Below are positions 4 through 43,185 of a DNA stretch of 64,000 bases, in pieces. Every line of letters begins with the position of its first letter. The stretch's first letter is position 1. The translations under genes were made by a program, and so were the position numbers. The notes under the pieces were generated by a model that worked only from the letters and a program-made list of their open reading frames with translations, made no database searches and was not told the origin of the DNA. Source of the DNA: a virus (taxonomy: Duplodnaviria > Caudoviricetes); IMG/VR virus record IMGVR_UViG_3300025838_000035, positions 1-64,000 of that record; one strand, given 5' to 3'.

Positions 4-438
4 GTGGGTTTGTTGTTGGTTATATCAGGAGGTTACTATGTCTCAGATCATCACGGCTATGAAAGACGGGTTGCAGAAGATAAAGCAGAAATTGAGCGCC
101 TTAATGGAGAAGCTCGTGCAAAAGAAGCAGAGCTCGGACAAAAGCTTGCAAGAGCCACCGGCCAACTGAAAAAGGCTAAAGATGATATTAAGACCAAGCA
201 GGCTGACATTGGTGCTCGTATCGATGCTGGCGAGTTGCGCCTCCCCTCCACCTGTGGTGTACAAGCCAGTTCAGATGCCCCCAATGGAAATCAAACCAAT
301 GGAGCCGAATCTGACCGACAGGCTATTAAAGATATTGTCTCCATCGCTTCAGACGGAGACAAAGCAATCGTCAAGCTCAACGCCTGCATCAGTCAGTACA
401 ACGAAGTGATGCAGACAGTTAATGAGGGTGTGAAATGA
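4..438 (+). CDS. Rz-like inner-membrane spanin (5'-truncated at window edge)
   Basis: Hydrophobic N-terminus followed by coiled coil, directly upstream of endolysin with ATGA overlap; contains a nested lipoprotein ORF; near-copy of 43182..43754. Confidence 0.8.
   Translation: MGLLLVISGGYYVSDHHGYERRVAEDKAEIERLNGEARAKEAELGQKLARATGQLKKAKDDIKTKQADIGARIDAGELRLPSTCGVQASSDAPNGNQTNGAESDRQAIKDIVSIASDGDKAIVKLNACISQYNEVMQTVNEGVK
182..409 (+). CDS. Rz1-like outer-membrane spanin lipoprotein nested in Rz (alternate frame)
   Basis: Signal peptide with lipobox LASC followed by Pro-rich SPPPVVYKP; frame conserved in the second copy at 43211..43438. Confidence 0.8.
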   Translation: MILRPSRLTLVLVSMLASCASPPPVVYKPVQMPPMEIKPMEPNLTDRLLKILSPSLQTETKQSSSSTPASVSTTK

Positions 439-1028
439 TTACAGCAGAAAAACTTCATGCCCTACAAATCGGGCCAGAATGGGTGGAGCCACTAAATGCA
501 ACTATCCAAAAGTTTAGCATTTTTACCGTTAAAGAACAGGCCGCATTTATCGGACAGCTTTCACACGAGTGCAACCACTTCAAAGTCCTTTCAGAAAATC
601 TTAACTATAGAGCAGAAACCCTTCAAGCTCTCTTCCATACCCACTTTAAACCTGACGAGTACGCCCTTTTTGCTCACAAACCAGAAAAGATTGCCAACAG
701 AATCTATGCTAACCGAGGAGGTAATAGAAATGAAGCCAGCGGAGACGGTTGGCTATACCGAGGCAGAGGATGCATTCAGCTCACACTCCATGACAACTAT
801 TGGCATTGTGGGCAAGCCTTGGGTCAGGATTTTGTAAGAAACCCTGATCTTGTAGCAACACCTATGTGGGCAGTTATGAGTGCAGGATGGTTTTGGTCAA
901 CGCATGGTTGTAATCGACTGGCTGAATCAGGCAATGAAGAAGGACTATGCAAAGTTGTAAATGGAGGACTGATTGGTCTTGAAGACAGAAAGAACTTGAC
1001 CAGCAAAGCTTTTGCCATTCTGTCATAA
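435..1028 (+). CDS. Endolysin, glycoside hydrolase family 19 (chitinase-like)
   Basis: AAFIGQLSHEC, ENLNY, YRGRGCIQLT, SAGWFW, VNGGLIGLEDR motifs typical of phage GH19 lysins. Confidence 0.9.
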   Translation: MITAEKLHALQIGPEWVEPLNATIQKFSIFTVKEQAAFIGQLSHECNHFKVLSENLNYRAETLQALFHTHFKPDEYALFAHKPEKIANRIYANRGGNRNEASGDGWLYRGRGCIQLTLHDNYWHCGQALGQDFVRNPDLVATPMWAVMSAGWFWSTHGCNRLAESGNEEGLCKVVNGGLIGLEDRKNLTSKAFAILS

Positions 1029-15126: not shown

Positions 15127-15323
15127 TTTTTCATGTTCCTTACAAATGCTGCAAATGATTGTGAGGTATTGCCAAACATCATTTTGTCAAACTCTTGTGC
15201 AACCTCTTCAAGCACTGCATTCCGTAATTCTTCTGATAAGAACTTCATGTCTGTGTTTATTCTTGTTTGTTGTTGAGCAATACGCTCAAACTCTTCATCT
15301 TCAGGGTCTTTAAAGTTACTCAT
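15123..15323 (-). CDS. Small hypothetical protein (MSNFKDPEDEEFERI...)
   Basis: C-terminal RNAVLEEVAQEF..AAFVRNMK motif common in phage small ORFs; start chosen downstream of the track start. Confidence 0.5.
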   Translation of the reverse strand: MSNFKDPEDEEFERIAQQQTRINTDMKFLSEELRNAVLEEVAQEFDKMMFGNTSQSFAAFVRNMKK

Positions 15324-15777
15324 AATCCATTGCCTCCTCCGACCAGTTTTTAGCCTCAAATGTACCTGATTGCTTGATTTCTTTTAGCGCTTGATCTAGT
15401 TGGTCATAAGACCGAACAACTGCGCCTGATGCGGCCAGCACTAAATTAAATTTCTGACCTTCTTTACCGCCAAGCCAATTGTAAATGATAGGTATGCCTT
15501 GAGCATAACACCAACCAGCTTCAAACAATGTTCCAGGGTCCTTACCGTCGGTTACACAAACCGTTAAGTCAGTGTTGTACAAAGCCTGTATATTCACCTT
15601 TAAAACATCGGCAGGTGTCATTGTGTGTGGGTCATATAGCATATCATCTTTTGGACTAAAGTAAGATAGGCCATTACGTTTTAGAACATCTTTGATGTTT
15701 TCTACGACTGTGACTTCACGTTCATTAAAGAACGGTGATGCAATATAAACAGATGGATTACGGTTAATGGATTTCAT
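15316..15777 (-). CDS. Nucleoside 2-deoxyribosyltransferase / nucleotide N-glycosidase-like protein
   Basis: VYIASPFFN, FSPKD, D..V, DPGTLFEAGWCYAQGIPI: NDT/Rcl/MilB superfamily motifs. Confidence 0.8.
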   Translation of the reverse strand: MKSINRNPSVYIASPFFNEREVTVVENIKDVLKRNGLSYFSPKDDMLYDPHTMTPADVLKVNIQALYNTDLTVCVTDGKDPGTLFEAGWCYAQGIPIIYNWLGGKEGQKFNLVLAASGAVVRSYDQLDQALKEIKQSGTFEAKNWSEEAMDYE

Positions 15778-25444: not shown

Positions 25445-25719
25445 ACAATCAACTAAATGCCAAAGAGAGAGCGTACGTCAGGCTTGTTAAGAGTCTGCCG
25501 TGCTCTGTCTGCGATGCATCAGGCCCAAGTGATGCACACCACGTTAAGCAACATCGTCAATACACCGTTGTTGCCCTCTGTAAATCATGCCACCAAGGAG
25601 CCATCATGGGTTGGCATGGCCAGAAAAGAATGTGGGCTATTAAAAAAATGGACGAGATGGACGCCCTTGATATCACGATTCAACGTGCGATCAAGGAGCT
25701 TTCTTCAGCGATTTTCTAA
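25441..25719 (+). CDS. Zn-binding HNH/Ref-like (DUF968-type) nuclease
   Basis: LPCSVC..AHH..LCKSCHQG. Confidence 0.65.
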   Translation: MNNQLNAKERAYVRLVKSLPCSVCDASGPSDAHHVKQHRQYTVVALCKSCHQGAIMGWHGQKRMWAIKKMDEMDALDITIQRAIKELSSAIF

Positions 25720-28700
25720 TTTCCTCAGCATGTTGTGCAACCTGAGATATCAACAGATCTAAACGTTGAATCTCTTGTTGCTTCTGCTCCCCAGTCATTG
25801 ACCTGTTCTGTGGGTTAGCAATCTGTAACTTCTGCTTACGGATACTGGCAATATCCTTGGCAGTCTTATCGTATAGCTTAGCCAGAGCAATATCGTCTTT
25901 CTTCTCAGTCAATATCTCTTTGACCTTTTCCGATTGACCCAACTCGGCATAGTGCCTCATGTCAGCATAAGACTCAGATATCCTCTGATTGTTCTGATAG
26001 AAGTCAGTTACATAAGTAGACTGTGTTGCAGGCAACTTCTGAACAAAGCCCAAGCTCATGCGCTTAGTCCAGTCAGCATCAGGATATACACCATCGTTAA
26101 ACGGCATCATGGCGTATTGGGAAGTAGTCTCAATCGTACCGCCCAACCACCCCATGTATCCACGGATCATGTAGTCAATCTGTACTGGAGAAAGCTCCGT
26201 TCCCGCTATGGGAGCAAATACATGGGACACACCACCCAAAGCCTTAGCGATAGCACTTGTATCGTTGCTCACACGCTCTTGCTTGGATAGACGCTCCATA
26301 CCAGCAGTCTCGATAGGCGCATTGGTAAATGAATCCTTATTTGCATAAACGTCCACCAAAGGCTTGAAGAACTGAGGAGTAGGATTCATAGAGAATGTCT
26401 GGAAGACCATGCGCTGAATGCTATCTCCAAACACTTTACCCTCTACGCCCTTATCAACGATCTGCTCCAAGCTGCGCTCAGCCAATGTACCAAATGAGCC
26501 AAACTCGAAAGGCTTAGGAATGCGAAACACTTCATTTGTTCCTGGAATCTTGAACCACCAGAAGAAGTCACGATCCCATTGCTCACGTTTCTTGAAGTCT
26601 TCATCATCTTTGAACGCCATGTACAAAGCCATAGACGCCAAAGTAACTGCGCCTGCGACAGTAGAAAACGACTTGGCTTTCTGTATATCGTCCTGAATGA
26701 TTGGCTTACCTGTAGCGGTGTTGTAAAAAACACGAACAGTAGGGTTTATCCCGTCCCGACCAAGCTTGTACAAACCCTGTAGACGAGCATTCAAGAACGG
26801 AACGATCTGAGACAAGTAACGAATAGCGCCTGATGATCCACTCATGGAGAAGTCCATCAAGTCACGAGCTTCGAAACTAGCTTCCAAGTGTGTCTTGCCT
26901 TCAGCTCTGAGCTTCTTATACAAGGCTATGCGGTTGATGTTCTCTGAACGGTTACCAATCTCTTCATACTTGTGCCAAAGCTTCTTGAGGAAGTGTTCGA
27001 CCTTTTCTTTGGTATCGACAATGTTCTCACCGTTCACACCACTAGCAAGCAGTTTCTTAACCACTTGACTGCGATCACCCTCTAGCGTTGTTCCGTAGTT
27101 GAATACGCCACCACCAGCCAAAGCAGCGATATAAGTAGCGGAACCTGGCTTACTGTCAGCAAAACCATCATAGACATTCTTAACAAAGTTGTTGGACAAA
27201 CCAGACAAACCAGCAGACTGAATCGAATCCTTGATCAAGTTACTGGCTTTAAAGGCAGGAGATAAAGTGACGCCAAACCGCAAGTAGTTCTTGAAGTTCC
27301 TCATCACATCCAAGACCTTAGACTGTGGCCCAAGGTATGTAATAGCCCCAATAGACTCTAAGAGCATGGGATCATTCACATGGAAGTAGGCATCCTTACC
27401 ATTGATCAAAACCTTAACGGTATCCTTGCCTGAATCCGTCATGCTGACCAAATACTTTTTGCCGTCTTCATCTACACGCTCTTGGACAACATCACCGTTT
27501 CCTACGATTTTGCCACTTTCAGCAGAGTGAACTGCACCGTCAGCCCAGTAAAGACCAGGCTTCAAGTTAGGAGTAACTGCCCCTTGACCAGAGGCATCTT
27601 GGATAATCGTGACCGCTGCTTGATTCTTCATCGAGGCAGACAGAATGTGTGACCAGTTACGCATCACGTTTTCCATCAAATCCCCAAATGGCTTTTCATT
27701 CTGACCTTTGAGCATCTTAGAGAATTGCTGATTGGTCAACCTAGACGCAGCTCTAATGGACTCAATCTTTCCATCTTCCATCGCACGATAGAAAGGAATA
27801 TAGAAAGCGTCATTGGCAAAGCGCTCATAGGCTTCTTTATCAATCGTCCCTGTATCTAAGGCTACGTCCAGAACAGACTTGTTAATGGCCATCATGTCTT
27901 TGCGAGCTTGCTCATAAAGCTTAGCCCTAGACACACCATTCAAGTCACCCTTGATCAAGTCATTGCGCTGAGAAACCATGCTCGACAAGTTGGGAGAACG
28001 CTTTTCATCAGGCAGATTGGCTTCTCTGTTCAAAGCCATCCAGACTTGGAAACGATCTACTTCCTTACCAAGGGGAGCAAGAGCTTGCATCAAGCCCTTG
28101 TGATTGTCCCCAGTTTTAATATTCAAAGCGCCATCATCAAGGAACGCATGGCCATAATGCAAAATACCCTCCAAAGCTCCGTCAGTAGCCTTGGATAAAC
28201 GGGCTTGCATGTAGCCGATAGGCGAATAGTCTTTAACCGTCCTCAGCTCATCAACCATCTTCTGAGCCAATGTGTTCCAGAAGTTACCCTTCATACTTAC
28301 AACACGATCCAATATCGTCTTATTGGGAGCATAGAACGTACTCTGAATCTGTGACGTTAGCTTAGGATCAACGCCTGCAAAGGCATCTACATTCATGGGA
28401 GAACGCTTCTGTAGGGCTTGCTGAACCTTATCCCCCAAAACACGACCTGCTTCATGGGCGGTCATCATCTTAAGGTAGTCTTCCTCTTGATGGGATATTG
28501 AGTCCGACTCAACATACTTTTGGTAGGAAGGCATATTCATCAAACGATCCATCACACGATCTTGAGGATCCTGATGTTCGTATAACGCATCCATGATAGC
28601 CTGTGGCCTAGACTTGCCTTGAGCAACGCCATTCAGAATAGATGATCTAACCTGACTGGCATCAGCAGTTACATTTGTATCAGGAGACAACAACGCAACC

Positions 28701-31700
28701 GTATGGAGCAGAGGATTTAACTTTGTATCTGATGCAGCGCCCAAGAAGTGTATCGCTTTAGGCTTTACTTCTTTCAGGAACTGGTCGAGGTCAGCACGGG
28801 AAACGGCTTTCTCGTTGGAAGGTATTCCAACAATAAAATTATCCGTGCCTAAGGTTTTGACCAAATGCTTATAAACATCAGCCAAAGACATAGCGCCTTT
28901 TTGAATTGGAATAATTGGTCTGCTTATATTGAAATTAAGTTCAGCCTGAATCCAATTCTTATGCTTATCAATCAAGTCCAAAGAGGCTTTTTGATCGCCA
29001 ACAATGTCAGGCATCACAAATAAAGGTCTTGGATACTCTGATTCCTCTACATCATTTAATCTTTGAATTGCCTCTTCAATCGCATCATACTTTGCAAGAA
29101 TGGCATCAAAGTCTAAAGGCTTAGGCTTATTCCCTTTCAACTGTTGCCTGAAATTACTGAACGCACCAGAGTCAACAAATACTGGCGTCTTCATATTCAA
29201 AACAGTATGCGCTATTTGGTTAATCGCATTCTGAGAAATCAAGCCTACGTCCACGCCAATACCGTGATTGGTATGCCCACTTCTAGCCCGTGTAGCATTT
29301 TCAAGATCAGAAATACCACTCATACCAGACGCAAACCGAACTAAGTTTTCTTTGACATGGGCAAGATTCTTTTCTTCTTCAGTCTCACCAAATAAACTTT
29401 GTTGTTGCTTGGCCTGTTCTTTCTTACCAAACCCTTCTAATCTAGGTTGAGTAAATGCAGTAGTAGCTTTCTTGGCTTTACCCAAGGCATAGCTCTGCTT
29501 GATCATTCCATTTTTAAGATCAACCAAGTCGCTGCTCACAATAGAATCTGTGGTGCTAACCAACTTATCCAAGGCAGTCTCAAACGGCTTAGCAATGCCA
29601 AGCAACTCACGGATCAAGGAAACAATGTGATTGAATACAGTCTTTTCCCCGACTTTGATATCGTTCAAGAACTTCTGTACGCCCTCATCAGTCATACCCC
29701 AAGATACAAGCTCGTCCATATTGGACAACGCATTGTTCTTGCCACGCATGAACTCTTGGATAACCAAAGGCAGATCTGCACCTTTGTTCTTAGCAAACTC
29801 AGCGTTATAGTGCCTAACAACTTGGTTATACAAGGTAGCAAGCTCTTTGACCAACGGATCAGTAGACTTCAGGAATCTCAACTGACCACGGGTAGCAACG
29901 TGCAATAGCTCATGCATCACCACCTTGTAGCTCATGCCAGATGGATAGCCCAATTGATTTGCTACGACTGGATGACCATTGAGCAATATACGCATGTGCG
30001 TATGATCACCATTCTGCCCCCAGTAGAAAGTCGTTACCCCATTAGCATCAAACAACTGACTATTGCGCTGATCTCCGTCTTGGATCTCAAACTCATAAGT
30101 CACGCCTTCTTTAGCCAAAGCCTGAATCCTGTTCAGGACTTTCTGCATCACAAACTTTGTAAACTTATTGGGCGCATTGTTGATAGCCCATTGAGCTACC
30201 TGAACCATTGACTTGCCCGTCAACTCTTTCTGAATCTTTGCTTGCTCAGAAGTAGGCTTAGGCGCTTGCTCAATAGCTCCTGTCTTAGACTTTAACGTAC
30301 CCTCACCAGACTGAGACTTCAATGTCTCAACCCTATCGTGCAACTTGTCCCGAACAGCAGCCATCAAAGCATTATGTCCCTCACGCTGATAATCAGCTTC
30401 TTGAGGGTGTTGATAGCGTACTGCCGTCAATATAGGATCAGGATTGATGCCTAAAGTTTGAGCATTGTCATAGAGCTCAGGCAATGTCTGACTCTCAAAC
30501 CAATCCTCAGTAACTGGCCCACGCAAAGCCTTGTCAGCCTCAAACTGACGCTCTTCCTCTGCAACCTGTTGCTCTTTATAAGCACCACCAATCTTCTCAA
30601 TGTCTTCAGGTTTTACCGCATTAGTCGCAATGGCTTGTCTTGCTTCTGCTTGATCTTCATTCTGAATGTAACCAGCCTGATGCAAAGCTTCAGTAACCTG
30701 ATCCATCCTGAATCCGTTGGGTCTGAACAAAGGTCTGTTACCAACCTGTTCATTCTTGTCGTAATTCATGTTTGCCATTTCGTCTGTATGCAAACCACCA
30801 CGGCTTGCAACAAACGCCTTAGCACCAATGATAGGCTCACCAGATGCAGTCATGGGTAGACCAATTTGACTCTTTGCTTCACGATCAAGCTCAGCCTGTG
30901 TCTTAGGAGACAGCACAAACTTACCCGCAACCTTGATCATCTTCATGGTCGGATTAAGCTTCTGCGCTGCCTTAGCCTGAATAGGATTATCAAATGGCAC
31001 ACCGCCATCCTTGATCAGAACGTTATCTTTACCCACATTCAATGGGTGCTCAGAAGCTTTAAAGAACGGCCCTGGAGCTTTCTTTTCTTTAGGCTCAAAG
31101 CCTTGGGCTTGCCAGACTTCTTCAGGCGTCCTAGGCGCAATAAGGTTACCTTCCTTATCCACTTTGGGCTTGGTAGGCTTGCCCTCTTCTTGAGCTGCTG
31201 CTTCGTTGATCGCCTGTTGTTGCTCTAAATCATATTGAACAATGTATGCCTCTTTCTCTTCAGGAGACATAGATGCCCACTTTTCTTGGGTCATCCGCAC
31301 CTTTTGAGGAGCATATTTGGCTTCAAATTCCTGTTGCTCATTCAGCGCAACTTGACCGCTAGGCATTACTTTAGGAACACCAGCCAATGGAGAATAGCCT
31401 AACTGAGGAGGCGTAGCAGCTACTTCTGCTTTATTTAAATTGGGTTGTGGAGCATACTTAGCCTCGAACTGAGACTGGTTGTACGCATCAAGATCAGCCT
31501 GAGTAAGCGCTACCGATCCATCTGGCAAAGCTTGTGGAGTGAATGGCTTATTCATACCAAGAGCTAAAGGCGCAGCAGGAGGAGGAGCTTCAGGAGGAGC
31601 AATCTCTTGTTGTGGTACTTCCAATGGTACTTCAGCAGGAGCTTGGATAGCAGGAGCATTCATCCTAGTCCTGATACCGCCCACACCACCAGGTACTGCA

Positions 31701-32746
31701 CCCATGACAAATGCACCGCCTGCAGTATTGATGTACTCGTTAATAGCGTCTTTGTCATTAACCGACAAGCCTGCACCATAACGCTCTGCGGCCTGTTGCA
31801 ACTCTTCAGCAGGTACTTCCTTAGCACCAGTAGCCAACATACCTTTGCCTACATCAAGCAATAGGTTTCTAGTCGATTTGTTAGCAATGTTGCTTAGCCC
31901 ACCAAGACCAATCTTCTCACCCGCATAATCAGCAAGAGAGTGAACGGCTACGGCAGGAGCTAAACGACTCATGTCGATCTGCTCAGGATCATAACCAGCT
32001 TCTTGCAAAGCACGACTTGTCGTTTCACCTGTACCGTGAAATACCGCTTGTCCAGCCATGCCTAAGTTTTGACCATAAGCCGCTGCGCCAGACTTGGCCA
32101 GTTTGCTTAGCTCTTCACCATTCAAGCTATCAATAGCATGAGCAGCCACATAATCAGCCGTTGCTTTCTTGGCTTCTTCTTTAGTAGCACCACTAGCCAA
32201 TTGCTCTTGAAGTATTTTTTCCGCTGCTTCTTTGATGCCTTTTCTGACCAAAGAACGGTTAACTACACTTTCCATAGCACCCGCGGCAGTACCAGCTCCT
32301 GGAGCTACGGCAGATCCAAGTAGTCCACCAGCCAAAGCAAACGCACCAGTTTCCATGATGTTGGCCATACCCTGACCAACCTGATAAGGCAACCAATCGG
32401 TTACGACTGTACCGATGCCTTGCTTCCATGCCTCTTGCAAATCATCAGACTTCTTGGCTTCTCTCTGCTGAGCTTCATTGGCTTCATGGATATTCTTAGC
32501 GCCCTTACCCAATAGGTAATCGGATACCACGCCCTGACCAAGAACGTGCTTAGCACCAGCTCCAAGTAGCGTTTGCATACCACCAAGAACTTCTTTGTCT
32601 GAATCTGCAAGAGACTCAAAGCCACGGACAAAATCACCCTTATCAACACCCAGAAGACCTTGTACCGTTTTATCTATTACGCTATGGTCTGTACCATCTG
32701 GGAATTCAAGAATACGGCCGTCTGGGAGTTCTGCTTCGATGGTCAT
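25691..32746 (-). CDS. Large polyvalent virion protein (2351 aa): zincin metallopeptidase, TGT/DpdA-like domain, C-terminal LPD38-like domain
   Basis: HELLH at ~29900-29925; DSGAFS/PDIVGD/IHFLG/DAS at ~28650-29180; FRIPKPFEFG..KPLVDVYANKDSFT..LSPVQIDYMIRGYMGWLG at ~26130-26530. Confidence 0.8.
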   Translation of the reverse strand: MTIEAELPDGRILEFPDGTDHSVIDKTVQGLLGVDKGDFVRGFESLADSDKEVLGGMQTLLGAGAKHVLGQGVVSDYLLGKGAKNIHEANEAQQREAKKSDDLQEAWKQGIGTVVTDWLPYQVGQGMANIMETGAFALAGGLLGSAVAPGAGTAAGAMESVVNRSLVRKGIKEAAEKILQEQLASGATKEEAKKATADYVAAHAIDSLNGEELSKLAKSGAAAYGQNLGMAGQAVFHGTGETTSRALQEAGYDPEQIDMSRLAPAVAVHSLADYAGEKIGLGGLSNIANKSTRNLLLDVGKGMLATGAKEVPAEELQQAAERYGAGLSVNDKDAINEYINTAGGAFVMGAVPGGVGGIRTRMNAPAIQAPAEVPLEVPQQEIAPPEAPPPAAPLALGMNKPFTPQALPDGSVALTQADLDAYNQSQFEAKYAPQPNLNKAEVAATPPQLGYSPLAGVPKVMPSGQVALNEQQEFEAKYAPQKVRMTQEKWASMSPEEKEAYIVQYDLEQQQAINEAAAQEEGKPTKPKVDKEGNLIAPRTPEEVWQAQGFEPKEKKAPGPFFKASEHPLNVGKDNVLIKDGGVPFDNPIQAKAAQKLNPTMKMIKVAGKFVLSPKTQAELDREAKSQIGLPMTASGEPIIGAKAFVASRGGLHTDEMANMNYDKNEQVGNRPLFRPNGFRMDQVTEALHQAGYIQNEDQAEARQAIATNAVKPEDIEKIGGAYKEQQVAEEERQFEADKALRGPVTEDWFESQTLPELYDNAQTLGINPDPILTAVRYQHPQEADYQREGHNALMAAVRDKLHDRVETLKSQSGEGTLKSKTGAIEQAPKPTSEQAKIQKELTGKSMVQVAQWAINNAPNKFTKFVMQKVLNRIQALAKEGVTYEFEIQDGDQRNSQLFDANGVTTFYWGQNGDHTHMRILLNGHPVVANQLGYPSGMSYKVVMHELLHVATRGQLRFLKSTDPLVKELATLYNQVVRHYNAEFAKNKGADLPLVIQEFMRGKNNALSNMDELVSWGMTDEGVQKFLNDIKVGEKTVFNHIVSLIRELLGIAKPFETALDKLVSTTDSIVSSDLVDLKNGMIKQSYALGKAKKATTAFTQPRLEGFGKKEQAKQQQSLFGETEEEKNLAHVKENLVRFASGMSGISDLENATRARSGHTNHGIGVDVGLISQNAINQIAHTVLNMKTPVFVDSGAFSNFRQQLKGNKPKPLDFDAILAKYDAIEEAIQRLNDVEESEYPRPLFVMPDIVGDQKASLDLIDKHKNWIQAELNFNISRPIIPIQKGAMSLADVYKHLVKTLGTDNFIVGIPSNEKAVSRADLDQFLKEVKPKAIHFLGAASDTKLNPLLHTVALLSPDTNVTADASQVRSSILNGVAQGKSRPQAIMDALYEHQDPQDRVMDRLMNMPSYQKYVESDSISHQEEDYLKMMTAHEAGRVLGDKVQQALQKRSPMNVDAFAGVDPKLTSQIQSTFYAPNKTILDRVVSMKGNFWNTLAQKMVDELRTVKDYSPIGYMQARLSKATDGALEGILHYGHAFLDDGALNIKTGDNHKGLMQALAPLGKEVDRFQVWMALNREANLPDEKRSPNLSSMVSQRNDLIKGDLNGVSRAKLYEQARKDMMAINKSVLDVALDTGTIDKEAYERFANDAFYIPFYRAMEDGKIESIRAASRLTNQQFSKMLKGQNEKPFGDLMENVMRNWSHILSASMKNQAAVTIIQDASGQGAVTPNLKPGLYWADGAVHSAESGKIVGNGDVVQERVDEDGKKYLVSMTDSGKDTVKVLINGKDAYFHVNDPMLLESIGAITYLGPQSKVLDVMRNFKNYLRFGVTLSPAFKASNLIKDSIQSAGLSGLSNNFVKNVYDGFADSKPGSATYIAALAGGGVFNYGTTLEGDRSQVVKKLLASGVNGENIVDTKEKVEHFLKKLWHKYEEIGNRSENINRIALYKKLRAEGKTHLEASFEARDLMDFSMSGSSGAIRYLSQIVPFLNARLQGLYKLGRDGINPTVRVFYNTATGKPIIQDDIQKAKSFSTVAGAVTLASMALYMAFKDDEDFKKREQWDRDFFWWFKIPGTNEVFRIPKPFEFGSFGTLAERSLEQIVDKGVEGKVFGDSIQRMVFQTFSMNPTPQFFKPLVDVYANKDSFTNAPIETAGMERLSKQERVSNDTSAIAKALGGVSHVFAPIAGTELSPVQIDYMIRGYMGWLGGTIETTSQYAMMPFNDGVYPDADWTKRMSLGFVQKLPATQSTYVTDFYQNNQRISESYADMRHYAELGQSEKVKEILTEKKDDIALAKLYDKTAKDIASIRKQKLQIANPQNRSMTGEQKQQEIQRLDLLISQVAQHAEEIRKSLKKAP
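28499..28511. promoter_or_regulatory. Palindromic site TGAGTCCGACTCA, copy 2 (in CDS)
   Basis: 18-bp TGAGTCCGACTCAACATA identical to 21012-21029. Confidence 0.55.
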
Positions 32747-32749
32747 GTT

Positions 32750-35068
32750 TTATCCGATTTGTTTTCCGCTGCTATCGTATTTGATTCTGGTTGCGCCTGT
32801 GGTTGTAGGTTGCGTATTAGCAAAAGGATCAGGCAATCCTAATTTCTGATGAGCTTGTCTATAGTAAGCATTACCCATCAAAGCTTTACGTTTCATTTCA
32901 GCTCTTGCTTGCTCAAGTTGAGCAGGGTTCATATTCATTAATATATCACCCTTGGTATTCGCTACTGCATTTAACTCTGCATCTTTCTCTGCTTTAGAAA
33001 TGTAGTCCGACAAGTCTTTCTGTTGTCGCTCATTTAAAGACGCTTGCCTTTGAGCCAAGTTAGCCGCAGCACTTGTTGACTTACGCTCTGTCTCAGCCTT
33101 CTGAGCTTCTGAACGTTGAGCCAATGCATCTCTACGCATTTGATCGTAAAGCTCTGTCTTAGACAATCCAAGCTGAGCAGCCATGATCTGTTTCTGCTCA
33201 TCGCCACGTTGCTTGTTAGCAGTAGCCAAGTATTGCAGACCCTGTGCTCCGCCTTGACCAATGTTAGACATAGCATACTGTGAAGTACCACCCATCATAC
33301 CAAGACCTGCCTGTAAAACAGCAAGCCACATATCCTGCTCTTTAGACTTCTTGCTATCGAACTCCATGTCTTTAAGCTTCTGTCTAAAGTCAGAAATGTC
33401 TGAGCTCTCTTCAGGTTTAGTAGGCAACGCCTCAATTCCCGTAGGTCTTTTCTCGGGCTCACCAGTAGGTTCAAACTGATTAGCACCAAATCCAATATCC
33501 ATGTCACCCAAAGGAGGAGTAGTAGGCGTACTATTGTATGCCTCGACTTCACCGTACCCAGGTCCACCTTTTGTGCGATGACCGATAGTAGCCGCAGGCA
33601 ATGGCTTAGAAGGCGTTACATCAGCAGGAGCAGGTAACAAAGAAGTGATCGCAGTTGGAGCTTCATCTTTTCTAATTGGAACGTTCTGTGTAATACGCTT
33701 TTTACCCATATTAGGATAGATCAAAGCAGGGTGTTTTGCTGCTTCAATTTCTTCCAAAGTAGCTCCACCTGGGTTAGCACCCAAAGCGGTAGGAATGTCA
33801 GCATTGTTAGGGCCAGTCAAACCTTTATATGCCATTGTTGCAGCAATAGGAGCACCTAAACCTACAATGCCTGCTGGGGTTAAAAGCCCTGCTGCGCCAG
33901 CTTCTGCTGCGCCAGAGGCAAGAGGATACTTGGGGACAAAGTTGCTCGCTGCCTTTGCTCTTTGAACGCCAGCCGCTAATTCATCCGCAGTAAATGCATT
34001 AGACGGAGCACTGCTTGCAGCAGTAGAAGTACCGAGATTACCAATGCCACCCGAGGATTGAAATGCATTGTTAGCTCCTAAACTGTATGGTTCACCACCA
34101 GCAATATCACTAAACACAAGGCTACCACCTGCACCTTGATAGTGCTTTACTTCTCCGCCAGAAGCCAAACCAACAATGCCACCTCTAGCAAAGTTAATAC
34201 CCTTGATATAGTTCTGGGTTTCTTTCGGGAGCTTGGAGATATCTGCACCGTTAGCAAGCCATTTGTCAGCATTTCCAGTCCCCCAGTTATAAGCAATAGC
34301 TGCAAGTGTAGGATTCTGATACTTATGCAACAACGCATCAGCATACTGTTCGCCTACCCTTTTCAACTCATCAGGATTGTTAACATCTTTAGCAGGTGCA
34401 ATACCAAAACCTGGATCCTTGGCGGTTGCAGGCATGACTTGCATTTCACCCAAAGCGCCCTCAGAAGACTTCAGCAAGTGACCTTCTTTGTCATAACGCT
34501 TACCACCACTTTCTTTTCCAAGAATGTGGCGTCTTAATTTCTCACTCTCATCCAACTGAGCTATTCCTTGAGGAGCAGCTTGGGGCATAGCTTGAGGCGC
34601 AGGTTGTAATGCGGCAATAGCCTGATGCTGTGCTTGTGGTTGCTCAGGTTGCGTCATGTTGACGTCAATATCTTCATCTTCTTCACCAGAAACTGGAGCC
34701 TGAAGTCTTCCCAATAACGACTTAAACAGAGCAGAATCTTGACGCTCTTCTTCATCATCATCGTCATCTTCACTCAAACCGCCATCAGCAAAAGCAACGA
34801 TGCCACCGCCACTAGCACCTACTGGCATATTGCTAGGCAACGCAGTTACACCTTGACCAGCTTCAGACATGATGCCTTGAGCAATGGTCTGTTGCGGTTG
34901 GTTCTTAGCCGCCGCTAAACCTTGAGCAGTCTTTTGTTGGTTAACCTTGTCTTGCAACATAGGTACGCCAACATAAGCAGGAATAGTCCCGTCTTGAATT
35001 GCCTTTTGCAATTGCTCTACCGACAAATTCTCGGCAGTATATTCACGGCTTGCTAATGATCCAATCAT
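32750..35068 (-). CDS. Internal virion protein with lytic transglycosylase (SLT) domain
   Basis: GKESGG..GALGEMQVMPATA..AAIAYNWGTGN..ETQNYI. Confidence 0.8.
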   Translation of the reverse strand: MIGSLASREYTAENLSVEQLQKAIQDGTIPAYVGVPMLQDKVNQQKTAQGLAAAKNQPQQTIAQGIMSEAGQGVTALPSNMPVGASGGGIVAFADGGLSEDDDDDEEERQDSALFKSLLGRLQAPVSGEEDEDIDVNMTQPEQPQAQHQAIAALQPAPQAMPQAAPQGIAQLDESEKLRRHILGKESGGKRYDKEGHLLKSSEGALGEMQVMPATAKDPGFGIAPAKDVNNPDELKRVGEQYADALLHKYQNPTLAAIAYNWGTGNADKWLANGADISKLPKETQNYIKGINFARGGIVGLASGGEVKHYQGAGGSLVFSDIAGGEPYSLGANNAFQSSGGIGNLGTSTAASSAPSNAFTADELAAGVQRAKAASNFVPKYPLASGAAEAGAAGLLTPAGIVGLGAPIAATMAYKGLTGPNNADIPTALGANPGGATLEEIEAAKHPALIYPNMGKKRITQNVPIRKDEAPTAITSLLPAPADVTPSKPLPAATIGHRTKGGPGYGEVEAYNSTPTTPPLGDMDIGFGANQFEPTGEPEKRPTGIEALPTKPEESSDISDFRQKLKDMEFDSKKSKEQDMWLAVLQAGLGMMGGTSQYAMSNIGQGGAQGLQYLATANKQRGDEQKQIMAAQLGLSKTELYDQMRRDALAQRSEAQKAETERKSTSAAANLAQRQASLNERQQKDLSDYISKAEKDAELNAVANTKGDILMNMNPAQLEQARAEMKRKALMGNAYYRQAHQKLGLPDPFANTQPTTTGATRIKYDSSGKQIG

Positions 35069-42594: not shown

Positions 42595-43185
42595 TTAGGC
42601 GCTTAAAACCGCAAGAGTTTTAGCAGTTAATTCCTTGCGTTCATTCAGTCCAAACAAACCACCATTGATTCTCTTACAAAGCGCTTCATCATTATCAACT
42701 AAGTTATTGCACCCGTGCGTAGCCCAAAACCAACCACCACTCATTGCTGCATACATAGGTGTTTTTACCAAGTCTGGATTCTTTACAAAGTCCTGACCAA
42801 GGGCTTGGCCACAATGCCAGTAGTTATCGTGAAAGGTGAGCTGGATCGTACCTCTTCCCCTGTACAAAAAACCGTCCCCACTTGCCTCATTCCTATTACC
42901 TCCACGATTAGCGTAAATGCGGTTGGCAATCTTTTGAGGTTGATGGGCAAAAAGGGCATACTCCTCTGGTTTAAAGTGAGTATGAAAGAGAGCTTGAAGG
43001 GTTTCAGCTCTATAGTTTAAGTTCTCTTCCAAAGTGCGGAAGTGATTGCATTCATGGGAAAGCTGACCAATAAAAGCCGCCTGCTCTTTAACGGTAAAGA
43101 TGTTGAACTTTGTGATCGTTGCATTAAGTGGCTCAACCCATTCTGGCCCAATCTGTAAGGCATGAAGCTTTTCAACTGTAATCAT
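42595..43185 (-). CDS. Endolysin, GH19 family (second copy)
   Basis: Same motifs as 435..1028, highly similar protein. Confidence 0.9.
   Translation of the reverse strand: MITVEKLHALQIGPEWVEPLNATITKFNIFTVKEQAAFIGQLSHECNHFRTLEENLNYRAETLQALFHTHFKPEEYALFAHQPQKIANRIYANRGGNRNEASGDGFLYRGRGTIQLTFHDNYWHCGQALGQDFVKNPDLVKTPMYAAMSGGWFWATHGCNNLVDNDEALCKRINGGLFGLNERKELTAKTLAVLSA

Follow-up and report, generated by a model that had tools for sequence, protein, structure and literature searches.

A probable new clade of the TGT/DpdA superfamily within a giant polyvalent protein of a phage

At present, the modification of DNA with 7-deazaguanines is associated with DpdA genes that are accompanied by genes for preQ0 synthesis, DpdA and the tRNA-guanine transglycosylases (TGTs) being members of one superfamily. 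DpdA has been proposed as the signature of this modification (PMC10516641), and the papers that classify these proteins recognize bDpdA and DpdA1-4, all of which are separate genes. In phages, DpdA of the DpdA1/DpdA2 type (e.g., gp03 of Enterobacteria phage 9g; PMC6884629, PMC10516641) is a stand-alone gene of the replication module located beside FolE, QueC, QueD, QueE or ParB. Here we describe a related module that, unlike phage DpdA, is part of a virion polyvalent protein of 2351 amino acids (aa) encoded by a virus of the Caudoviricetes (IMG/VR record IMGVR_UViG_3300025838_000035). The DNA analyzed, positions 1 to 64,000 of this record and referred to below as the window, is part of a 78,777-bp virus genome that was rated 100% complete by CheckV.

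The active-site residues of Salmonella DpdA are backed by mutagenesis and structure, with Asp95 acting as the general acid/base, Asp256 as the nucleophile, Phe99 and Leu236 sandwiching the base, and Asp130 and His181 reading its Watson-Crick edge (PMC10164549). Three active-site Asp residues are invariant across TGTs and DpdAs (PMC10164549). As judged from sequence profiles and a structural model, residues 1112-1394 of the phage protein (the module) very probably form a new clade within the TGT/DpdA superfamily, in which the predicted catalytic apparatus is intact. Phage DpdA is the closest family by sequence profile; like the module, it is phage-borne and has no Pfam match to TGT.

Homology to phage DpdA and the predicted active site

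The alignment of the module family (A1, 48 sequences) was compared by hhalign with an alignment of 11 annotated phage DpdAs (A2), six of them from actinophages, two from cyanophages, one from a Vibrio jumbo phage and the others from phages 9g and Seurat. The two alignments matched with a probability of 96.3% and an E-value of 1.9e-9 over 142 columns, while the reversed DpdA alignment gave an E-value of 0.2 and ten column shuffles gave E-values ≥ 0.32. Five motifs were in register between the module family and phage DpdA, namely DSGAF with DSGAF, PDvVGDQ with LDvIGDp, Q-x-G with H-x-G, H-x-L-G with H-G-x-G, and S-x-D-A with S-x-D-S. The patterns shared by both (DSGAF, D-[VI]-[IV]-G-D, Gln/His-x-Gly, H-x-x-G and S-x-D) fall on beta-strands 3, 4, 5, 7 and 8. 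An initial annotation of the window had quoted six motifs of a TGT-like domain between an HExxH metallopeptidase motif and an LPD38-like C-terminus; all six are present in the 2351-aa open reading frame (ORF), in the order given there, within residues 1189-1365 and between HELLH and the LPD38 domain. Their match is far beyond chance, since the module has 685 homologous clusters and its motif residues coincide with the columns that never vary in this family.

The counterparts of Asp95, Phe99, Leu236, Asp130, His181 and Asp256 of Salmonella DpdA in the module are D1192, F1196, L1335, D1247, Q1282 and D1362, respectively. The assignment had been staked beforehand on the Asp residues, and D1192, D1247 and D1362 do align with the catalytic positions of DpdA and TGT, with clean controls. 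Conservation was counted over 155 domain instances from 151 representative clusters. Each of the three Asp residues was invariant (D1192, 143/143; D1247, 149/149; D1362, 146/146), as were H1333, L1335 and G1336 (148/148 each) and P1309 (149/149), and the loop Ser (123/149) and Arg1367 (139/146) were also frequent. The invariance of the Asp residues, H1333, L1335, G1336 and P1309 is a pattern typical of an active enzyme. The predicted gate that stacks on the base is F1196 (Phe in 129 and Tyr in 12 of 143 sequences), L1335 the predicted second face of the base sandwich, and Q1282 the predicted second reader of the base edge (Gln in 133, His in 7 and Pro in 9 of 149). Bacterial TGT also has a Gln at the beta5 position of Q1282, and in the Zymomonas mobilis enzyme the counterparts are Tyr106 and Met260 for the sandwich and Gln203 for the edge reader.

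AlphaFold2 run with alignment A1 produced eight alternating strand-helix units with a predicted local distance difference test score (pLDDT) of 93.5 and a predicted template modelling score (pTM) of 0.91; a single-sequence model, with a pLDDT of 44, was discarded. In the retained model all invariant residues of the family are placed at the C-terminal strand ends, the classical active-site face of a TIM barrel. The fold, on which the initial annotation had also staked the assignment, is predicted to be a TIM barrel, and its best solved matches include Cap10, ArcTGT, DpdA and bacterial TGT. With one chain per PDB cluster, VIA-align returned Cap10 (9ntn_B) at Z 14.6, ArcTGT (1iq8) at 14.4, DpdA of Salmonella Montevideo (7ui4; PMC10164549) at 14.1, with a root-mean-square deviation of 3.7 over 223 residues, and TGT (3unt) at 13.4. 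The TGTs (PF01702) matched at Z 13.4-14.4 share the same barrel, likewise carry their catalytic residues on strand ends, and have DSGxF aligned. Among the Foldseek matches in PDB were dozens of TGT entries from Z. mobilis (E 3e-6 to 3e-5, TM about 0.48). In BFVD a family member fused to ART-PolyVal came first, and the best named matches that followed include phage queuine tRNA-ribosyltransferases. When the ESM Atlas was searched by shape, unnamed relatives scored TM 0.77-0.78, a 'T4 beta protein family' cluster 0.74, and TGT 0.65 versus 0.62 for aldolase; by features, the nearest named clusters bear PF23859 DpdA on 17% of their members. On this model the module would be a zinc-less, minimal TIM-barrel enzyme of an unnamed clade.

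In direct database searches the module segment had no Pfam match at E ≤ 10, only sub-threshold noise (HAD-type) in NCBIfam, nothing in PADLOC, and only chance SSB matches in PDB, both by sequence and by profile. The sole functional hint from a PHROG search of the segment was phrog_887, the DpdA / phage queuine tRNA-ribosyltransferase family, at a sub-threshold E-value of 0.06. None of 48 stand-alone relatives had a credible Pfam match, and a single one matched DUF6610 (=DpdA4) weakly (E 0.0026). Filing the module under TIM-B (P4 Beta protein), DpdA4 or the Pfam DpdA family was considered and dropped; no hidden Markov model (HMM) of these matched.

Limits, distribution and carrier of the module

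The limits of the module were set by comparison of the window's protein (P0001) with its closest relative, a 3136-aa protein (P0003). BLASTP aligned the two at 68% identity over exactly residues 1112-1394 and found no significant similarity outside this region, which shows the module to be mobile between giant proteins that are unrelated in their other parts. By this comparison the region is a transferable cassette inserted in a virion polyvalent protein. The span of 28600-29345 proposed in the initial annotation fits the predicted barrel core, the homology-defined module being slightly wider (Table 1). That annotation had also described parts of the segment as more AT-rich than the flanks. 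This holds within the ORF, where the GC content of the module is 0.413 versus 0.463 in the rest, but is unremarkable for the genome, in which the module ranks at the 27th percentile of same-size windows (mean 0.43, standard deviation 0.029; 43% GC overall). The dip, real against the ORF but ordinary for the genome, was rejected as a signal of horizontal transfer, and the cassette interpretation rests on the P0001/P0003 comparison instead.

Table 1. Positions of the module, its motifs and other features of the polyvalent protein gene in the window
Feature	Residues	Window position	Strand	Basis or counterpart
Polyvalent virion protein gene, 2351 aa (P0001)		25691..32746	(-)	ORF list and translation
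LPD38 domain	2048-2210	26117..26605	(-)	Pfam PF18857, E 3.6e-32
TGT/DpdA-like module	1112-1394	28565..29413	(-)	Homology boundaries
TIM-barrel core (predicted)	~1136-1375	28622..29341	(-)	AlphaFold2 with alignment A1
ADASQ, end of beta8	1361-1365	28652..28666	(-)	Aligns with S.DSS of phage DpdA
D1362, predicted nucleophile for covalent ribosyl intermediate	1362	28661-28663	(-)	Asp256 of DpdA
IHFLG, beta7	1332-1336	28739..28753	(-)	Aligns with HGxG of phage DpdA
IVGIP(SN), beta6, family-specific loop	1305-1309 (IVGIP)	28820..28834	(-)	Versus DpdA loop G206/G207
PIIPIQKG, end of beta5	1277-1284	28895..28918	(-)	Gln aligns with His of FHxG
MPDIVGD, end of beta4	1245-1251	28994..29014	(-)	Aligns with LDvIGD of phage DpdA; Asp130
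VFVDSGAFS, end of beta3	1189-1197	29156..29182	(-)	Aligns with DSGAF of phage DpdA
D1192, predicted general acid/base	1192	29171-29173	(-)	Asp95 of Salmonella DpdA
Upstream putative zincin-like region with HELLH	~830-1080	29507-30259	(-)	Sequence and language-model features
HELLH motif	945-949	29900..29914	(-)	Seen in sequence

An exhaustive phmmer search found module homologues in 685 clusters (at 50% identity) at E ≤ 1e-3 and in 317 at E ≤ 1e-10. Some members of the family are embedded in proteins of 1,000-7,200 aa, others stand alone as proteins of 250-400 aa, and the source names sampled for them read 'hypothetical protein' or carry the label of another domain. Copies of the module, searched for by tblastn and, for related loci, with a 10-sequence alignment of the family, were located in 47 plasmids, mainly Pseudomonas megaplasmids and those of Cupriavidus, 18 of which are conjugative. 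Copies were also present in 31 IMG/VR contigs and in 21 bacterial genomes, where they mostly stand alone. None was found by tblastn over 50,697 GenBank phage records, and the cultured phages that share the LPD38-type C-terminus are without the module. A subfamily of stand-alone relatives (e.g., P0063, P0074 and P0090; residues ~265-392) continues beyond the barrel with about 125 conserved aa, an extension that is absent from the window's protein. In the ESM Atlas, a cluster of 415-aa viral proteins that match the barrel carries Pfam ScoMcrA_N on all members, and this domain may correspond to the extension.

The carrier has the make-up by which polyvalent proteins are defined, in that it combines 2351 aa, an HExxH region, the TGT-like barrel and LPD38 within a virion gene block. 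LPD38 was its sole Pfam match; PHROG 18222 and 9854 span residues 1599-2342, and matches to its C-terminal 600 aa occur in 72 GenBank phages, among their virion, 'portal' and polyvalent proteins. The upstream HELLH region had no Pfam match and resembles the LPD23 and LPD1 polyvalent-protein domains by language-model features (score 0.96), which we treat as a lead only. Two SU10-adaptor genes, capsid genes and genes for lysozyme-bearing virion proteins surround the ORF, and by these neighbours it belongs to the structural block of an SU10/phiEco32-like podovirus. The virion polyvalent context proposed in the initial annotation was thus borne out by LPD38, by the neighbouring virion-protein genes and by homologues annotated as virion proteins.

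Other features of the carrier and its genome were also recorded. The peptide FEAKYAPQ was read twice in the translation, about 46 residues apart (residues ~427-480; window ~31300-31470, minus strand), within a Pro/Ala-rich linker that follows the Gly/Ala-rich N-terminal region. The 772-aa protein encoded directly upstream of the polyvalent gene (window 32750-35068, minus strand) has matches among virion structural proteins, and its residues ~123-290 are lysozyme/endolysin-like, consistent with an ejected protein that breaches the cell wall. Two genes for GH19 proteins (chitinase class I / endolysin-type; 196-197 aa), at window 435-1028 (plus strand) and 42595-43185 (minus strand), share 83% protein identity on opposite strands about 41 kb apart in the same phage genome. 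A nucleoside 2-deoxyribosyltransferase, another base-swapping enzyme, is encoded at window 15316-15777 (minus strand; PF05014 match at 15484-15750, E 4.5e-14). The window also encodes ThyX, a YfbR-like HD 5'-deoxynucleotidase and a 2OG-Fe(II) oxygenase, and this set of nucleotide-metabolism genes could be a sign of DNA hypermodification.

Fusion partners and the favored function

The domains fused to the module were surveyed in 42 medium-sized relatives and comprised inorganic pyrophosphatase (InPase; 9), ART-PolyVal (5), LPD1 (3), N6 DNA methylase (2), DUF6884 (2) and C5 DNA methylase (1), as well as helicases and RadC. Within 600 aa of the module at 24 viral loci, C5 methylase was found 4 times and InPase in 3 of 43 flanks, together with RadC, ART-PolyVal, FtsK-gamma, ddrB-ParB, DarA_C, Zeta toxin and helicases. 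Relatives of the module are thus embedded in proteins of 2-7 kaa that also contain InPase, ART-PolyVal, LPD1, methylases and helicases. Two metagenome contigs carry complete genes that join the barrel to an InPase-type domain: L071:1089-2702 encodes these two domains, and L073:5001-7766 adds an AcrIF11-like anti-CRISPR ADP-ribosyltransferase. Both genes adjoin giant polyvalent or DarB-like genes.

Among the stand-alone copies, some are immediate neighbors of DarB-like methylase-helicase genes and of a ParB gene. The neighborhood of P0063 is that of a phage, with Rad52, RuvC, SLT and Mom but without que genes, and that of P0074 held nothing informative. On a Cupriavidus plasmid, a 582-aa fusion of the barrel to DUF6884 is encoded near a relaxase gene. 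DUF6884 is a distant relative of YaaA/DUF328 that is predicted to flip bases in DNA (PMC11701544), and DpdC is itself DUF328. As in the bacterial Dpd system, some module relatives are fused to a YaaA/DpdC-like domain or lie near ParB-type genes; these are partial echoes of the DpdA-DpdC and DpdA-DpdB pairings, with the DUF6884 fusion present in 2 of the 42 relatives.

The module's partners (InPase, ART-PolyVal, LPD1, RadC, methylase-helicase, ddrB-ParB and DarA_C) are the classic polyvalent set described by Iyer et al. 2017 (PMC5512222). Judging from gene content, the setting is an entry-phase anti-defense toolkit of phages and plasmids that is biased to DNA-modifying partners. The main text of Iyer et al. 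mentions no TGT, queuine or barrel domain, but it calls some unnamed LPD domains, e.g., LPD19 and LPD21, 'potentially enzymatic', and these never reached Pfam (PMC5512222). These observations are consistent with a domain that is undescribed in the literature, although, set against that main text, it may equal one of the unnamed LPD domains. The view of the initial annotation that such a fusion had not been described agrees with the silence of that text, with database names of 'hypothetical protein' and with the lack of a Pfam model.

Polyvalent proteins are thought to be injected or transferred together with DNA. The function that we favor, at slightly less than even confidence, is that of a delivered DNA guanine-exchange enzyme, which would act on the DNA of the entering element with a base supplied by the host and protect it from restriction. 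The bias of the partners to DNA enzymes makes the DNA of the entering element the most likely target; we infer that the protein is delivered into the cell, that it targets DNA, which base comes in and that it serves against restriction. In the proposed sequence of events, the giant protein would be packaged, perhaps be processed, and leave the virion together with the genome. The module would then act on DNA by flipping a guanine into the pocket of F1196 and L1335, where D1247 and Q1282 would read it. D1362 would attack C1' to form a covalent deoxyribosyl-enzyme intermediate while D1192 would protonate the leaving base, and a free base from the host pool, with preQ0 or preQ1 as the most obvious candidates, would resolve this intermediate. 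The incoming DNA would thereby be marked against restriction, in parallel to the DNA methylase modules of other polyvalent proteins.

A bolder version, which we regard as rather unlikely, is that phages and conjugative plasmids deliver, along with their DNA, a minimal zinc-less transglycosylase that rewrites guanines of this DNA in the first minutes after entry with a base taken from the host. This base would be either preQ0/preQ1, counterfeiting a Dpd-type self-mark, or an unknown base that fits the altered beta6 loop described below. If true, this would be a new anti-restriction strategy, in which base exchange replaces methylation and the invader carries no biosynthetic genes.

Several observations weigh against assigning the module to the superfamily and against guanine exchange as its activity. 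Starting with structure, three class II aldolases scored Z 14.1-14.4 in VIA-align, tied with the TGTs, Foldseek against PDB ranked class II aldolases level with TGT, and the TM scores to TGT were modest at 0.45-0.65. Because of this tie, structure cannot settle the assignment on its own, and the model considered alone would be described as a TGT-like or aldolase-like barrel. In sequence, hhalign comparisons with E. coli Tgt alone and with a 10-sequence Tgt profile aligned only the DSG motif, and neither the segment nor the genome matched PF01702, PF23859, PF20314 or PF14350 at E ≤ 10. Authentic phage DpdAs behave in the same way, however, as 0/11 match any Pfam model and their profile also fails beyond DSG against Tgt. 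The missing Pfam TGT and Tgt-profile matches are therefore uninformative on membership.

The module also departs from its relatives in its parts. TGT-type enzymes carry a zinc-binding subdomain (CxCxxC...H), and residues 1116-1402 hold no Cys, so that a Cys-based zinc subdomain is absent. The model has only three short helices after beta8 and no C-terminal hairpin; a post-barrel extension has been called diagnostic for positioning a macromolecule (preprint 10.64898/2026.10.19.760177). The module likewise differs from phage DpdA in lacking the segment that follows beta8, from Salmonella DpdA in its length (about 260 versus 413 residues), and from TGT in lacking the zinc subdomain and the PUA / C-terminal tRNA-binding domains, with a profile match that ends at DSG. 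The Gly-rich beta6 loop, which in TGT and DpdA reads the 7-substituent (G206/G207 in DpdA), is replaced by G-[ILV]-P-S-N. G-I-P-S-N in the module stands against L-G-G-x-V-G in phage DpdA, just as its Gln stands against the DpdA His, and with the altered loop a base other than preQ0 or preQ1 may be the one that comes in.

The supply of such a base presents a further difficulty. The initial annotation had seen no folE, queD, queE or queC in the window, and this absence extends to the complete 78.8-kb genome, which has no QueC, QueD/PTPS, FolE or canonical TGT, nor any match to Pfam DpdA, DpdA4 or TIM-B. Of 31 related viral records, 18 of which are ≥90% complete, none had QueC over the cut-off, in contrast to the canonical phage dpdA loci, each of which, among those fetched, adjoins FolE, QueC or ParB genes. 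Nor was a DpdB-type partner seen in the 2351-aa protein, while bacterial DpdA requires the DpdB ATPase (PMC10164549). The commonest fusion partner, inorganic pyrophosphatase, is likewise unexplained by base exchange. Canonical Tgt was present in 10/10 bacterial genomes checked that bear a stand-alone copy of the module, so 7-deazaguanine pools are plausible in such hosts. As the zinc site and deazaguanine genes are missing and the beta6 loop is altered, the module is not simply to be called DpdA.

The actinophage dpdA loci (L008-L013) have an arrangement of their own. A gene with a ParB-like nuclease domain lies just upstream of dpdA in five of the six (not in Rhinoforte) and is immediately adjacent in three, which mirrors the bacterial DpdA-DpdB pairing, and a QueC-like gene follows dpdA in five of the six (not in Cracklewink).

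Alternative activities and implications

The same TGT-type enzyme may instead act on host RNA, exchanging or removing guanine or a queuosine-family base in tRNA (or rRNA) to reprogram or cripple host translation early in infection. The best-studied superfamily members do act on tRNA, as seen in the structure matches to TGT and ArcTGT, polyvalent proteins often bear RNA-targeting toxins (PMC5512222), the Q-pathway enzyme Tgt occurred in 10/10 of the host genomes checked, and no phage-made base would be needed if the exchange were with free guanine or host preQ1. The closest sequence relatives, however, are the DNA-acting phage DpdAs and not tRNA enzymes, and the partners and neighbors are mostly DNA enzymes (methylases, helicases, ParB and the base-flipping DUF6884 domain). 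TGT and ArcTGT hold tRNA via the zinc subdomain and the C-terminal parts, all of which are absent from the module, and we consider an RNA target improbable.

Because a pyrophosphatase-type domain is a recurrent partner, a role directed at nucleotides or a hydrolytic one also deserves consideration. Water rather than a free base would then resolve the Asp-ribosyl intermediate, making the module an N-glycosidase that strips guanine from host DNA or RNA or from guanine nucleotides; alarmones and cyclic-nucleotide immune signals might be among its targets, perhaps in cooperation with the fused domain. InPase is the commonest partner (9/42 proteins, 3/43 flanks), including complete two-domain genes, and the barrel-InPase combination also occurs with the AcrIF11-like anti-CRISPR ADP-ribosyltransferase. 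A hydrolase would need no replacement base, the supply of which is not encoded, and the change in the beta6 loop speaks against an incoming base with a 7-substituent. A role of polyvalent InPase domains in processing nucleotide-like substrates has been proposed by Iyer et al., but InPase is generally common in phage polyvalent proteins, and the co-occurrence may be incidental (PMC5512222). The pocket residues for an incoming base are, moreover, retained in the module. No member of the TGT superfamily is known to be hydrolytic, and we rate this activity as of similarly low probability.

A TIM barrel that is no TGT relative in function, such as an aldolase-like or sugar-phosphate enzyme with TGT-like motifs acquired by convergence, is very unlikely. 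Class II fructose-bisphosphate aldolases equaled the TGTs in both structure searches, and no curated TGT or DpdA HMM matched, but authentic phage DpdAs also miss the Pfam TGT model. The structural tie is broken by the profile comparison, as the module family matches phage DpdA with significant homology, clean controls and five motifs in register. Class II aldolases have three zinc-ligand His residues and a catalytic Asp/Glu/Asn set, and the module family has only one invariant His (H1333). The PHROG hint to DpdA (E 0.06) and the weak match of one member to DUF6610 (=DpdA4) also argue against convergence.

Like the module, Cap10 (type IV CBASS, 9ntn), TIM-B/phage P4 Beta protein (PF14350) and DpdA4 (DUF6610) are stripped-down transglycosylase-like barrels in phage-host conflict; those three, however, are host-defense or regulatory proteins with partners of their own (the QueC-like Cap9, the Gop toxin), whereas the module would be offensive and delivered. 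The bacterial DpdA likewise belongs to a host defense island and the module to an invading element. A Cap10-like modifier that attaches a deazaguanine-type base to a host or phage protein (e.g., a defense enzyme), switching it off or on, is highly improbable, because the nominal top rank of Cap10 with CdnD (9ntn_B, Z 14.6) and the regulatory nucleobase transfer proposed for the TGT-like TIM-B family (preprint 10.64898/2026.10.19.760177) are set against a Cap10 score within 1 Z unit of ArcTGT, DpdA and aldolases, the lack of a QueC-like partner (Cap9 analogue) in the genome or the 31 related records, the lack of a PF14350 match, and a context dominated by DNA enzymes.

The module points to a large unnamed sister family of DpdA that retains the full predicted catalytic set and travels without synthesis genes in viral metagenomes, prophages and 47 plasmids. 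Its small stand-alone homologues, such as the proteins of pKF715B and of the Cupriavidus plasmids, make the family directly testable. Polyvalent proteins would gain a new enzymatic class. If the family is active, either many more mobile elements modify guanines, by way of host pools, than their gene content suggests, or the entry phase of infection makes use of a TGT fold that has been adapted to a new substrate or chemistry.

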